A stretch of 17,257 bases of DNA from Candidatus Diapherotrites archaeon CG10_big_fil_rev_8_21_14_0_10_31_34 (GCA_002763225.1 PFAI01000047.1:26516-43772), one strand, 5' to 3'. Shown: positions 3,951 to 11,553, counted from the stretch's first letter. Notes: generated by a model not told the origin, from the letters alone. Program-made: numbers and translations.

Positions 3951-4196
3951 TTGTTGGTCAAAAAATTGCGTTCTATAATGAATCATTTTCTTGTACCTAT
4001 TCATGAAATTATTCCAGAAGAAAAAGAATTAGAAATAATAAATAAATTTGGCGGAAAAAAAGAAAAATTCCCCAACATTCTTTTAAGCGATCCGGTAATA
4101 GAAGAATTAGGCGCACAAAAAGGCAACTTAATTAAAATCACAAGAGAAAGTCCTACAGCCGGAAAATCAATTTATTACAGGGTCGTGGTCAAATGA
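3951..4196 (+). CDS. rpoH: RNA polymerase subunit H (Rpo5)
   Basis: HFLVPIHEI...FPNILLSDPV...GNLIKITRESPTAGKSIYYRVV. First gene of the RNAP cluster. TTG start (3951 or 3954) after GGAGTTGAT. Confidence 0.95.
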   Translation: MLVKKLRSIMNHFLVPIHEIIPEEKELEIINKFGGKKEKFPNILLSDPVIEELGAQKGNLIKITRESPTAGKSIYYRVVVK

Positions 4197-5659
4197 AGGG
4201 CTGGCCATTAATCAAAAGCTATTTTTCAACTAAAAATATTGCCCAGCAGGAAATTGATTCATACAATCAGTTTATTGATTCTAAATTAGATGAAATAGTA
4301 GAAGAAAACAAAACTATTGTTCCAAAAATAGAAGAAGTAAAAATCGAATTAGCTAATATTGAAGTATTAAAACCAAGAATAATTGAAGCTGATGGTTCTC
4401 CAAGGGCAAATTTTTTTCCAATGGAAGCAAGAACAAGAAATAGAACTTATTCAGGTCCTTTGTTTTTAACAATGAAACTACTGAGAAGAGACGTAGAACA
4501 AGATGAAAAAAGAGCTTATATTGGAGAAATGCCAATAATGCTTAAATCAAATCGCTGCTGGCTGGAAGGATTAAACAATGAAGAATTAATTAATGTGGGA
4601 GAAGACCCAATGGATTATGGAGCTTATTTCATAATCAATGGATCAGAAAAAGCTTTAATGACCCAAGAAGTATTGGCTTCAGACAGAGTATTAGTTTCAA
4701 AAACAGATGACAAAACAATTGCAGAAGTTATTTCAACTAAAGGGGCATTTAAAGGAAGAGTAAGAATTACAAGAAGCATTGACGGAGTATTATATGTAAC
4801 TTTTCCTTCTTCCCCAAGAAAACTAAGATTATTTGTATTGCTTAAAGCGCTTGGATTAGTAAGTGACAAAGAAATAACCGGAGCTTTTACAGAAGAAAAA
4901 GAAATGGTTAATGATATTTTACTTAACTTAGAGTTAGATGACTTAAATAAACAAAATGATGCATTAGATAAAATAGGAAAATATGTTGCTCCAGGACAAG
5001 TAGTAGAATACAGATTAAGAAGAGCAAAAGAAGTAATTGATGCATTTTTGCTTCCTCATATTGGGCAGAGAGCTGAAGATAGATTAGCTAAAGCATATTA
5101 TCTGGCTATGATGGCAACAAAAGCAGTTGAATTAAGTTATGGAATAAGAAACCCAGATGACAAAGACCATTACAAAAACAAAAGACTTGAATTAAGTGGA
5201 AAATTAATGGAACACTTATTCAGATATTCATTTAAATATTTTATTAAAGACTTAAAATTCCAAATCGACAGAACAGTTACAAGAAGAAGAAAACTAAATA
5301 TTTCAACTGTTGTAAGACCAGGAGCAATAAGTGAAAGAATCAGGTTTGCAATGTCAACAGGAAACTGGATTGGAAGAGCAACCGGAGTATCAAAATTCAT
5401 GGAAAGAGTGAACTTCATTGCCCCTTTAACTGATTTAAGAAAAGTTAAAAGTCCTTTAGATAAAAACAGAGAATTATATGAAGCAAGAGATGTTCATGGA
5501 ACTCATTGGGGAAGACTTGACCCAATTGAAACACCTGATGGACCTCAATGTGGTTTAGTAAAAAATTTAAGTTTATTATCAGAAGTAACAGTTGATTCAC
5601 TGGAAGAACCAGTTGAAACATTACTGGATTCAATGGGAGTAAAACTGAAAAAGTTGTAG
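4193..5659 (+). CDS. rpoB2: RNA polymerase subunit B'' (Rpo2 N-terminal part)
   Basis: PMEARTRNRTYSGP, GAYFIINGSEK, DDKDHYKNKRL, EARDVHGTHWGR..PIETPDG..CGLVKNL. Confidence 0.96.
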   Translation: MKGWPLIKSYFSTKNIAQQEIDSYNQFIDSKLDEIVEENKTIVPKIEEVKIELANIEVLKPRIIEADGSPRANFFPMEARTRNRTYSGPLFLTMKLLRRDVEQDEKRAYIGEMPIMLKSNRCWLEGLNNEELINVGEDPMDYGAYFIINGSEKALMTQEVLASDRVLVSKTDDKTIAEVISTKGAFKGRVRITRSIDGVLYVTFPSSPRKLRLFVLLKALGLVSDKEITGAFTEEKEMVNDILLNLELDDLNKQNDALDKIGKYVAPGQVVEYRLRRAKEVIDAFLLPHIGQRAEDRLAKAYYLAMMATKAVELSYGIRNPDDKDHYKNKRLELSGKLMEHLFRYSFKYFIKDLKFQIDRTVTRRRKLNISTVVRPGAISERIRFAMSTGNWIGRATGVSKFMERVNFIAPLTDLRKVKSPLDKNRELYEARDVHGTHWGRLDPIETPDGPQCGLVKNLSLLSEVTVDSLEEPVETLLDSMGVKLKKL

Positions 5660-5666
5660 TGATAAA

Positions 5667-10333: not shown

Positions 10334-10338
10334 TTTTT

Positions 10339-11553
10339 ATGGCAGAAGAAAATAAAAAAGAAGTTAAGAAAACTGAAAAAAAGCTAAAAACTAAAAAAGA
10401 ACCAGAAGAAATAGAATATATTCTGGAAAAAACACCTGATGAAAACACAACAAAACACGAGTTTTTGCCTGTTTCAGTAATGAGAGAAATTGATTCAAGA
10501 GTAAAAAAATACTCTTTAAACCCGGCAGAAAAACAAAAACTGATTTCAATTTCAGATAAAACTTATTTAAAAAACATGGTTGAACCAGGAGAAGCAGTAG
10601 GAATTATTGCTGCACAATCAATTGGAGAACCAGGAACACAATTAACACTTAGAACAAAACATTATGCAGGAGCAGCAGAAGTGTCTGTTGGATCAGGAAT
10701 CCAAAGAGTAGAAGAAATAGTTGACGGAAGAAGCAAATCAAAGTATCCGACAATGACAATATATTTATTAGAAGAATTCAGAAAAACAAAAGAAGCAGTG
10801 GAAAAATATGCAAACATGCTGATTGACATCAGAATAGGAGACATAATTAAAGTAGAAGAAGATTTAAACAAAAAGAAAATTTTTATTACAGTAAACGAAA
10901 AAGAAGTAAAAGATAAAAGCATTGACAGAAAAGATTTAGACAAAAAAATGGAAAAATATTTAAAAATGAAACCAAAAGACAAAAATGGAGTATTAGAATT
11001 CGGCCCATCAAAAGAATCATTATTAAAATCAAGAAAAAATTTAAACAAATTAATTTCAACCAGAATTCAGGGAGTAAGAGGAATAGACAAAACTCTTGTA
11101 GCAGAAGAAAAAGGAGAATTTTTGATTAAAACAAGCGGAACAAATTTAAAAATAGTTTTAAAATTACCTGAAGTAGACAAAGACAGAACAACAACAAACG
11201 ATATAAAAGAAATAAGCAAAGTATTAGGAGTTGAAGCAGGAAGAATAACAATAGTAAATGAACTACATAAAACATTCAGAGACAACGGAATAATGTTAGA
11301 TGTAAGACATGTAATGCTTTTAGCTGATTTAATGTGTTTTGAAGGAGATGTAAAAGGAATTGTAAGAACAGGAATTACAAGACAAAAAAGCTCTCCATTA
11401 GCAAGAGCAGCATTTGAAGAAACAACAAAACATTTATTAGATGCTGCATTCAAAGGAGAAATAGAACAATTAACCGGAGTAGTGGAAAACATTATTGTAG
11501 GACAGCCGATTAATGTTGGAACAGGAAATGTTGACTTAATAATGAGGAAATAA
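10339..11553 (+). CDS. rpoA2: RNA polymerase subunit A'' (Rpo1C)
   Basis: [63 protein letters not shown] 10339 preferred because GTGAT at 10330 is SD-like. Confidence 0.96.

Follow-up and report, generated by a model that had tools for sequence, protein, structure and literature searches.

The window analysed here is a stretch of 17,257 nucleotides from Candidatus Diapherotrites archaeon CG10_big_fil_rev_8_21_14_0_10_31_34. It contains an RNA polymerase operon in the canonical archaeal order rpoH-rpoB''-rpoB'-rpoA'-rpoA'', followed by the genes for L30e, NusA, S12, S7 and EF-2 (Table 1). The four large-subunit ORFs are intact. In a profile search, twelve Pfam Rpb1 and Rpb2 domain families score above their curated cut-offs, and all of Rpb1 domains 1-5 and Rpb2 domains 1-7 are found, which identifies the products as large subunits of an archaeal multisubunit polymerase. 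The rpoA'' gene has a GTG start and overlaps the stop codon of rpoA'. A 79-aa ORF insert has no Rfam match and no inverted repeat. The sole other match to this insert in the genome is one 30-base stretch with 90% identity.

The host genome (1.04 Mb, 65 contigs, 81.5% complete) has a single Rpb1_2 match and a single Rpb2_6 match. Three relatives assembled as single contigs (G023, G037 and G009; 94-99% complete) each have one B' match that carries the same derived residues as the window. A second canonical polymerase operon, whose presence would, by the sequence-only reading's own account, refute it, was searched for and not found in the window's genome, at 81.5% completeness, and no second polymerase was found in the single-contig relatives. 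The operon encodes the sole, housekeeping RNA polymerase of an archaeon of the order Iainarchaeales (DPANN, formerly Diapherotrites); that reading had taken it to be probably the functional enzyme. From the intact ORFs, the single copy and the strong conservation within the order, we infer that the enzyme is catalytically active.

Table 1. Genes of the polymerase operon and active-centre elements, in positions of the window
Feature	Position	Strand	Basis or remark
rpoH (Rpo5/Rpb5 C-terminal domain)	3951..4196	+	Pfam PF01191, E = 1e-23; first gene of the operon
rpoB'' (Rpo2 N-terminal half, 488 aa)	4193..5659	+	Pfam Rpb2 domains 1, 2, 3
Fork region with fork loop 3 / beta-D loop II, B'' aa 395-460	5375..5572	+	seven clade-level departures
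rpoB' (Rpo2 C-terminal half, 604 aa)	5667..7481	+	Pfam Rpb2 domains 4-7 (domain 6, E = 1e-118); PDB alignments
Link region, B' aa 140-165	6084..6161	+	PDB and outgroup alignments
Metal-B motif GFNTLDA, B' aa 210-222	6294..6332	+	Glu preceding the kept Asp replaced by Leu
KFSSKHGQKG to IPSRMT segment, B' aa 360-410	6744..6896	+	catalytic Lys and Arg kept; A>S 365, R>K 367
Switch 3 and following loop, B' aa 484-522	7116..7232	+	H>Q 488, EGKEKEGG, GEMEGE
rpoA' (Rpo1N, 866 aa)	7733..10333	+	Pfam Rpb1 domains 1-5; PDB alignment to 8cro_A, E = 3e-266
Switch 2, A' aa 300-318	8630..8686	+	substitutions at A' 308-313
Metal-A motif NADFDGD, A' aa 437-443	9041..9061	+	intact
Funnel / F-loop segment before the bridge helix, A' aa 715-782	9875..10078	+	
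Bridge helix, A' aa 783-820	10079..10192	+	alignments to solved chains and outgroup loci
rpoA'' (Rpo1C, 407 aa)	10330..11553	+	Pfam Rpb1 domain 5, E = 9e-49; PDB alignment
Trigger loop and base helices, A'' aa 88-135	10591..10734	+	
Switch 1, A'' aa 340-362	11347..11415	+	G>V 345, G>R 351, V>P 356

The central catalytic motifs are unchanged. The NADFDGD motif, the trigger-loop His and the PSRMT motif, all described as intact in the sequence-only reading, are present in the translations. NRQPSLH is present at A' 403 and IPSRMT at B' 401. The kept Arg of NRQPSLH, counted back from the Asp triad, is presumably yeast Rpb1 R446. Both lysines of the KF..HGQKG motif (B' K363 and K371) and the trigger-loop Gln, Leu and His (A'' 104, 107 and 111) are kept. 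At the clade level, there are no departures in the catalytic barrel segment surrounding the metal-A motif (0/26), the KF..HGQKG motif (0/10) or the PSRMT motif (0/7). Most of the direct metal and NTP ligands are kept, and the changes fall chiefly in mobile and second-shell elements.

Substitutions were called against the solved Pyrococcus and Thermococcus chains and 66 outgroup archaeal loci. The outgroups were drawn from five of the 64 parts of the collection and, as loci, do not include Sulfolobales, Asgard, Nanoarchaeota, Halobacteria or Methanococcales; Thermococcales (at residue level) and Sulfolobales (E-values and ranges only) entered through PDB searches. The window departs from the conserved residue at 77 of 546 columns whose conservation in the 66 outgroup loci is 95% or higher.

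In the A' bridge helix, the changes are E>Q 793, L>E 795, A>G 799, R>S 801, A/S>K 803, Q>V 804 and Q>Y 809. Window A' residue p corresponds to M. jannaschii A' p+19, a register that was checked through the residue names given in the accessible parts of PMC2988716 and PMC2776397. In that numbering, the substitutions are E812>Q, L814>E, A818>G, R820>S, A822>K, Q823>V, M827>L and Q828>Y. K803 and Y809 are each present in 39/39 loci of the order, and the other Iainarchaeia orders mostly have Gln at 803. According to the available text of PMC8204694, M. jannaschii R820 is very sensitive to mutation. In PMC2988716, Q823-C and Q823-I variants lose function and L814 contacts beta-D II. In the supplements of PMC2776397 (12 of 21 files, read from pie-chart letters), none of 171 sequences has E at the L814 position, and Y occurs at the Q828 position. 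The funnel and F-loop segment carries A>I 718, Q>A 739, G>E 743, I>P 746, L>I 755, H>A 757 and F>N 758.

The trigger loop has M>L 105, F>K 110, V>A 115, T>G 121, L>S 122, P>Q 125 and L>V 127, with K110 fixed in 37/37 loci of the order. Yeast numbering is window p+974, checked through residue names in the accessible part of PMC5127505. In the same text, V1089 and P1099 variants of yeast Pol II are loss-of-function, variants of the M1079/L1101 pocket are gain-of-function, and Pol III naturally combines residues of both types. In switch 2, the whole class shares an Ala at 309 and the whole order shares T>S 312 and V>T 313, while F>H 308 is found at the genus level. Switch 1 is substituted as well, between A'' 345 and 356.

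In the link, the window has AGKALHGAKMFKQ where outgroups have a sequence of the S-P-R-N/I-T-M/Y type. The changes are P>G 149, R>K 150 (aligned with E. coli beta R678), T>L 152 and M/Y>H 153, together with a Lys at 156 that is fixed in 44/44 loci of the order. In the metal-B motif, Leu at B' 220 is present in 29/44 loci of the order and 0/64 outgroups. The sequence-only reading counted this motif among near-invariant elements, which does not hold for its Glu among archaea: Glu is present in just 45/64 outgroup loci, the Thermoplasmatota consensus is Gln, and the Micrarchaeota are variable. In the fork region, where element names follow the accessible parts of PMC8204694 and PMC2988716, the window has C>D 443, E>D 449 (in the ETPEG loop) and N>Q 452, and keeps G450, V456 and N458. 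The C>D 443 change is present in 5/5 loci of the genus and 9/40 of the order, and B'' E427 is fixed in 40/40 loci of the order. Switch 3 and the loop that follows it also carry R>K 506, R>K 508, R>G 519 and D>E 520, and B' K534 is fixed in 44/44 loci of the order.

In the concatenated tree, the Iainarchaeia are monophyletic (46/46, support 0.999), as are the Iainarchaeales (42/42, support 0.68). The assignment to this lineage is supported by a contig of Ca. Iainarchaeum andersonii, with 63% A' identity. The B' match of that genome is identical in contig number, coordinates, bit score and E-value to that of G103, a genome labelled as of the same order, and the two are taken as one genome. Among the best 120 matches to the bridge-helix region, the named ones are mostly 'Ca. 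Diapherotrites', with a few 'Ca. Micrarchaeota' or 'archaeon'. About 13 of the 77 departures are class-wide, 45 are order-wide, 17 are shared at the level of a genus, a family or a minority of the order, and 2 are found only in the window. The derived residues are 90-100% kept over more than 30 families, with A' sequences only 47-67% identical to that of the window. The departure rate of the window (14.1%) is average for the order (13.2-20.9%), and a window-specific oddity is rejected. The active-centre changes are a trait of the Iainarchaeales, and partly of the class Iainarchaeia. The sequence-only reading was right that the changes are real and affect all four large-subunit genes; they are no peculiarity of one genome, since about 58 of the 77 are order- or class-wide.

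In a leave-one-clade-out test, the Iainarchaeales depart at 42/450 universal columns. The corresponding counts are 20/505 in Altiarchaeota, 13/495 in Thermoplasmatota, 12/509 in Micrarchaeota, 8/459 in Thermococci, 7/464 in Methanomethylicia/Culexarchaeia, 6/456 in Hydrothermarchaeota and 3/476 in Halobacteriota. By BLOSUM62, 22 of the 42 Iainarchaeales departures are conservative (score > 0). Convergence on bacterial residues is rejected: with E. coli rpoB and rpoC aligned to the archaeal subunits through profile HMMs, 6/33 alignable departures match the E. coli residue, near the proportions in other clades (for example 1/10, 2/12 and 1/8), and E. coli keeps the archaeal residue at 13/33. Residues L105 and A115 of the trigger loop and 'AL' of the link resemble E. 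coli locally, with no general trend.

If this DPANN lineage with its reduced genome were simply evolving fast or under relaxed constraint, the active-centre departures would be what any long branch is expected to collect, neither focused nor the mark of a new functional state. Several observations are congruent with this. The polymerase of the Iainarchaeales is the fastest-evolving in the sample, with a root-to-tip distance of 1.62 in the arbitrarily rooted concatenated tree (compared with 1.05-1.27 in Micrarchaeota, Altiarchaeota, Thermoplasmatota and Halobacteriota), and has the highest overall mismatch to consensus (41.6% vs 31-37%). Per substitutions/site of stem, the Iainarchaeales have about 42/0.33 departures, compared with 13/0.20 in Thermoplasmatota and 12/0.13 in Micrarchaeota, and the stem-length-normalised excess at universal columns is modest (about 1.3- to 4-fold). 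Some of the positions also vary in other DPANN, including the bridge helices of Micrarchaeota and Altiarchaeota and the metal-B Glu. The distribution of the departures, however, speaks against a long branch alone. With active-centre elements defined as sequence ranges under known element names and set after the data had been seen, 28/171 universal columns inside the elements are departed and 14/279 outside (Fisher p = 9e-5), so that 28 of the 42 Iainarchaeales departures lie in these elements compared with 16 of 69 in the seven other clades pooled (OR 6.6, p = 8e-6), p-values that are overstated because columns and clades are not independent. A concentration at the active site beyond overall divergence, which the sequence-only reading had proposed to check, is thus found for these post hoc ranges. 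In the other Iainarchaeia orders, 17/25 departures are in active-centre elements. Retention of the derived residues over more than 30 diverged families points to purifying selection and not to ongoing relaxation. Fast evolution as the whole explanation is unlikely.

An AT mutational bias in a genome of about 31% GC could exchange Gly, Ala, Arg and Pro for Lys, Ile, Asn, Tyr and Phe, at conserved sites too. The window has a GC content of 0.27-0.35, R>K makes up 11 of the 77 departures, and G, A or P is replaced in several more. Yet the loci of the order span 26-58% GC and have Lys at 9 of the 11 R>K positions nearly everywhere; at B' 367 and A' 427, the Iainarchaeales loci outside the genus mostly have Arg. 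The 12 outgroups with the lowest GC (30-45%) retain Arg at the 11 R>K columns, except for two cells in one locus, and many of the changes are not AT-ward (L>E, Q>A, R>G, F>K, A>G, P>G). The derived states are independent of GC content, and this bias, a very improbable cause, is rejected. Least credible is that the operon is a degenerate or specialised paralogue, with a canonical polymerase in the 19% of the fragmented genome that is unassembled, given the single Rpb1_2 and Rpb2_6 matches, the rpoH to EF-2 gene context and the single-copy relatives with the same derived states.

The window, then, encodes the four large-subunit polypeptides of the only polymerase of its host, with a canonical metal-A site and direct substrate ligands and with derived residues in mobile and second-shell parts at positions that other archaea keep fixed. 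Most probably, this polymerase is an active, selectively maintained alternative nucleotide-addition machinery, likely stabilised by compensation and independent of that of Nanoarchaeum equitans. The changes arose for the most part along two consecutive stems, first that of the class Iainarchaeia and then that of the order Iainarchaeales. All four polypeptides were affected, and the changes have stayed near-invariant since over more than 30 families. The substitutions are probably mutually compensating. On the bridge helix, charge may have been relocated, with E812>Q accompanied by L814>E and R820>S by a new Lys at 822 (817 in sister orders). The trigger loop combines positions of the yeast loss-of-function type (V1089, P1099) with positions of the gain-of-function type (M1079, L1101). 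Compensation is suggested because of this charge relocation and this mixture of position types, as a pattern seen in few independent lineages. The sequence-only reading called the architecture co-evolved, which is borne out only coarsely, by changes in each of the four subunits along these two stems.

More tentatively, the Iainarchaeia may have reached a second stable solution to nucleotide addition, independent of the Nanoarchaeota. This solution would combine the relocated charges (812/814, and 820/822 or 817) with new lysines at A'' K110, A' K803 and B' K156 and loss of the metal-B Glu and the bridge-helix Arg, and would alter the cooperation of metal, triphosphate and trigger loop. A'' K110 adjoins the trigger-loop His, A' K803 is at the template-facing position of the bridge helix, and B' K156 is in the link. 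If so, metal or anion dependence, rate or fidelity should be measurably different, and the residues should be functional only in combination (strong epistasis).

In all cellular RNA polymerases, four elements are regarded as almost unalterable: the bridge helix, trigger loop, link and beta-D II. A whole order, and partly a class, that keeps another set of residues under selection would be a natural experiment on how nucleotide addition can be solved again. It would be a second, independent case beside N. equitans for tests of epistasis and compensation, and it yields concrete residue sets that could be moved into tractable archaeal polymerases. It further offers signatures diagnostic of the Iainarchaeota, and is a caution that such genes should not be called defective in metagenome annotation.

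The canonical archaeal polymerases (P. furiosus 8CRO, T. kodakarensis 4QIW, Sulfolobus/Saccharolobus 2WAQ, 2PMZ and 7OK0) have the same subunits, domain order and operon as the window, with match E-values of about 1e-266 (A'), 1e-220 (B') and 1e-79 (A''). The metal-A and PSRMT motifs, the lysines of KF..HGQKG and the Gln, Leu and His of the trigger loop do not differ between them and the window. The difference lies in the departures from columns at least 95% conserved in the 66 loci, which are concentrated in mobile active-centre elements. In engineered M. jannaschii and yeast Pol II variants (accessible parts of PMC2776397, PMC2988716 and PMC5127505), positions substituted in the window are among those identified as controlling catalytic rate: R820, A822, Q823, M827, L814, M1079, V1089, P1099 and L1101. 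The substitutions in the window are natural, multiple and fixed, and the effects of single mutants may not transfer to them.

The sequence-only reading cited N. equitans as a precedent for an unusual active site, correctly so according to the accessible text of PMC8204694. As described there (Nottebaum and Weinzierl 2021), the N. equitans polymerase is substituted in the bridge helix, trigger loop, fork loop 3 and metal B and yet is active in vitro, and similar enzymes in Woesearchaeota and Pacearchaeota indicate a lineage-wide pattern. The words Diapherotrites, Iainarchaeota and DPANN do not occur in that text, and PMC13257274, in its available part, treats small subunits only. The sequence-only reading allowed that such changes might already be described for this lineage; no prior description in Iainarchaeota or Diapherotrites was found in the literature searched.

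N. equitans belongs to another phylum, and the comparison with it is made by published description and not by sequence. Activity and fluoride stimulation in vitro are reported for N. equitans only. In metal B, N. equitans has E>Q and the window E>L; a neutral residue is not exclusive to either, because the Thermoplasmatota consensus is also Gln. On the bridge helix, N. equitans has Pro at neA' 810 (the 822 equivalent) and keeps the Arg two residues before, where the window has Lys and Ser. The N. equitans fork loop 3 set is C>D, G>D, V/I>R and N>A, of which the window has C>D only, and the extra trigger-loop proline of N. equitans is absent in the window. Both are the sole polymerase of a DPANN archaeon, with a full subunit set and changes that are lineage-wide rather than confined to a single species. 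The four elements named above are radically changed in both, with the M. jannaschii 822 position and the metal-B Glu changed in each and the C>D change of fork loop 3 shared with the genus of the window. The polymerase of the window is of the same kind as the published N. equitans case, with the same elements changed to different residues.

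The window lineage is Iainarchaeales (Iainarchaeota, DPANN), and its RNA polymerase (RNAP) is single, intact and conserved; the metal-A centre is canonical, while the mobile elements carry an alternative residue set that is fixed in the clade. A Pfam search of the window ORFs recovers the full set of Rpb1 and Rpb2 domains, every one over its cut-off. Family searches of the whole host assembly (1.04 Mb, 65 contigs, 81.5% complete; the window is on contig 35) return a single locus each for Rpb1 domain 2 and Rpb2 domain 6, both inside the window. The sequence-only reading had taken this to be probably the functional enzyme, and these searches of the 81.5%-complete assembly find no second RNAP locus.

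Coordinates of features in the window
Feature	Positions	Strand	Content
RNAP genes	3951-11553	+	rpoH, rpoB'' (488 aa), rpoB' (604 aa), 79-aa ORF, rpoA' (866 aa), rpoA'' (407 aa)
308-aa ORF	1460-2386		PF00152 match
Insert	7482-7732		79-aa ORF
79-aa ORF	7484-7723		
Direct repeat	about 7473-7482 and 7721-7730		AAGGTGTAAA
EF-2 gene	13460-17257		intein

The genes following rpoA'' encode L30e, a NusA-type KH protein, S12, S7 and EF-2. The EF-2 gene is split by an intein with LAGLIDADG/homing-endonuclease domains, and its ORF (>1266 aa) extends past the window end. The 308-aa ORF matches the core of class II aminoacyl-tRNA synthetases only weakly, below threshold (19 bits; cut-off 25), and may be a synthetase-like paralogue. 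A window-specific insert of ~248 bases, with the junction directly repeated on either side, separates the rpoB' stop from the rpoA' start; this spacing is 2-7 bases in two aligned same-genus loci. The 79-aa ORF appears hydrophobic and membrane-like by eye, matches no Pfam family and is missing from all 48 of the relatives' loci examined.

In one Iainarchaeales locus (L061, genome G034), A' and A'' (the rpoA' and rpoA'' products) share an open frame of 1262 aa, the full-length sum. Shorter single frames of 1128-1170 aa occur at L093, L106, L108 and L143 (several Micrarchaeota/Altiarchaeota-like loci), and a fused form is described for Pacearchaeota in PMC8204694. The rpoB'' or rpoA' frames are much longer in some relatives within the Iainarchaeales (L092, L100, L037, L040, L042), with B'' ORFs reaching 1000 aa and 1014 aa (L092, L100) and an A' ORF reaching 1381 aa (L100). 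An intein-splicing Pfam domain occurs in two A' proteins from the database, each about 1370 aa long (P0017, P0048). Polymerase inteins are thus gained and lost within the order; none is present in the polymerase genes of the window.

All 40 of the nearest genomes contain one B' orthologue (55-90% identity). They belong to a single order, which spans >30 families and genome sizes of 0.5-1.5 Mb. A 150-genome phylum-wide draw yielded only this order and a few same-class genomes. In a named-contig scan, A' identity to the window is 63% in Ca. Iainarchaeum andersonii SCGC AAA011-E11 and 58% in a Ca. ainarchaeum contig. The B' matches of these two agree in contig number, coordinates, score and E-value with those of two genomes placed in the window's order (G103 and G141), and each pair is taken as a single genome. 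Of the best 120 bridge-helix-region matches, most that carry a name are 'Ca. Diapherotrites archaeon' or 'archaeon GW2011_AR10', with a few given as 'Ca. Micrarchaeota archaeon' or 'archaeon'. In the concatenated tree, the Iainarchaeia (46/46 tips, support 0.999, stem 0.149) and the Iainarchaeales (42/42 tips, support 0.68, stem 0.178) are both recovered, and each stem carries changes in all four polypeptides.

Residue states were read by aligning the window's subunits with the solved chains of Pyrococcus furiosus and Thermococcus kodakarensis; orthologue alignments (109-123 sequences per subunit) likewise show the kept and changed motifs. NADFDGD, NRQPSLH, IPSRMT, the two KF..HGQKG lysines and the trigger-loop Gln, Leu and His are unchanged. 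The bridge helix (M. jannaschii numbering, window A' residue + 19, register matched to published residue names) contains E812>Q, L814>E, A818>G, R820>S, A822>K, Q823>V, M827>L and Q828>Y. The trigger loop (yeast numbering, window A'' residue + 974, also matched to published names) contains M1079>L, F1084>K, V1089>A, T1095>G, P1099>Q and L1101>V. In B', the link is G-K-A-L-H versus P-R-N/I-T-M/Y in the outgroups, the metal-B Glu is replaced by Leu, and switch 3 has R>K twice, then R>G and D>E. The B'' loop ETPEG is ETPDG. All elements named as changed in the sequence-only reading are indeed changed, and switches 1 and 2 are altered too. At the metal-B column (B' 220), the outgroup Thermoplasmatota have a Gln consensus and the Micrarchaeota are variable, so the acid is lost more widely in archaea than PMC8204694 implies.

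Among 546 columns conserved to 95% or more in 66 outgroup loci (Micrarchaeota, Altiarchaeota, Hydrothermarchaeota, Thermococci, Methanomethylicia/Culexarchaeia, Thermoplasmatota and Halobacteriota), 77 carry a different residue in the window. On our count, about 13 departures are common to other orders of the class and about 45 to most of the order. Another 17 extend no further than the genus, the family or a minor part of the order, and only two (A' P472A and F770Y) are missing from five same-genus loci. The departure rate (14.1%) is slightly under the order mean (range 13.2-20.9%). Because this rate is near the mean and the states are mostly shared, the changes are a property of the lineage and not a peculiarity of the genome.

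Derived residues are retained at 90-100% throughout the Iainarchaeales. A'' K110 and P356 (37/37 each), A' K803 and Y809 (39/39 each), B' K156 and K534 (44/44 each) and B'' E427 (40/40) are fixed in the order, and loci outside the window's family that share derived residues have only 47-67% A' identity to it. Compositional bias does not explain the R>K changes, since most persist in Iainarchaeales loci spanning 26% to 58% GC (except B'367 and A'427, mostly Arg beyond the genus) and low-GC outgroups retain Arg at these columns.

General divergence was weighed by leaving out one clade at a time. A column counted as universal when all reference clades shared one consensus residue at a level of at least 85%, and a departure was a clade majority of at least 60% for a different residue. 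The Iainarchaeales depart at 42/450 columns (9.3%) and other Iainarchaeia orders at 25/450. The remaining clades are Altiarchaeota (20/505), Thermoplasmatota (13/495), Micrarchaeota (12/509), Thermococci (8/459), Methanomethylicia/Culexarchaeia (TACK sample, 7/464), Hydrothermarchaeota (6/456) and Halobacteriota (3/476). Overall consensus mismatch is 41.6% in the Iainarchaeales versus 31-37% in other clades, and the raw excess at universal columns per unit stem length is only about 1.3- to 4-fold. Within twelve active-centre ranges, which are sequence intervals that we set post hoc from customary or published element names, lie 28 of the 42 Iainarchaeales departures and 171 of the 450 universal columns (OR 3.7, p = 9e-5), versus 16/69 departures of the seven other clades (OR 6.6, p = 8e-6); these values treat columns and clades as independent, though neither is. 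The concentration at the active centre thus exceeds expectation in these post hoc ranges, and this focus is a stronger signal than the raw excess. The universal columns show no departure in the catalytic barrel segment (0/26), in KF..HGQKG (0/10) or in PSRMT (0/7).

The alternative residues probably compensate for one another. In the bridge helix, negative charge shifts from 812 to 814, the positive charge of R820 is gone class-wide, and a Lys is present at 822 in Iainarchaeales but at 817 in the sister orders. M. jannaschii R820 is reported to be highly sensitive to mutation (PMC8204694), Q823-I/C lose function and Q823-D/E are superactive (PMC2988716), and A822 tolerates bulky residues (PMC2776397). 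Beta-D II (fork loop 3, FL3), whose named contacts are L814 and R811 (PMC2988716), is also altered in the window. PMC5127505 reports that yeast Pol II V1089 and P1099 variants are mostly loss-of-function, that M1079/L1101 pocket variants are gain-of-function, and that K830 (the R820 equivalent) packs on V1094 in the closed trigger loop.

Full-text literature searches for a prior description in this lineage found no account of an Iainarchaeal active centre. The text of PMC8204694 contains no mention of Diapherotrites, Iainarchaeota or DPANN, and PMC13257274, in the part available, treats small subunits only. The proposal of a co-evolved alternative architecture is partly supported: the RNAP is intact and the only one found, and its changes focus on the active centre, but the metal-A centre is canonical and the trait is lineage-wide, not genome-specific.

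Pol III is noted to pair one gain-of-function with one loss-of-function variant (PMC5127505), and the Iainarchaeal trigger loop likewise combines both position types. In the N. equitans RNAP, the bridge helix, trigger loop, FL3 and metal B all carry radical substitutions; the reconstituted enzyme is active and stimulated by fluoride, and similar substitution patterns are noted in Woesearchaeota and Pacearchaeota (Nottebaum and Weinzierl, PMC8204694). The same elements are altered in the window, partly at the same positions (822, the metal-B Glu and the FL3 Cys). However, the amino acids at these sites are different ones, and the window has neither of the prolines and lacks three of the four FL3 changes, so its RNAP is not classed as nanoarchaeal type. 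It is best read, from these comparisons, as a lineage-wide, selectively maintained variant of an already known oddity.
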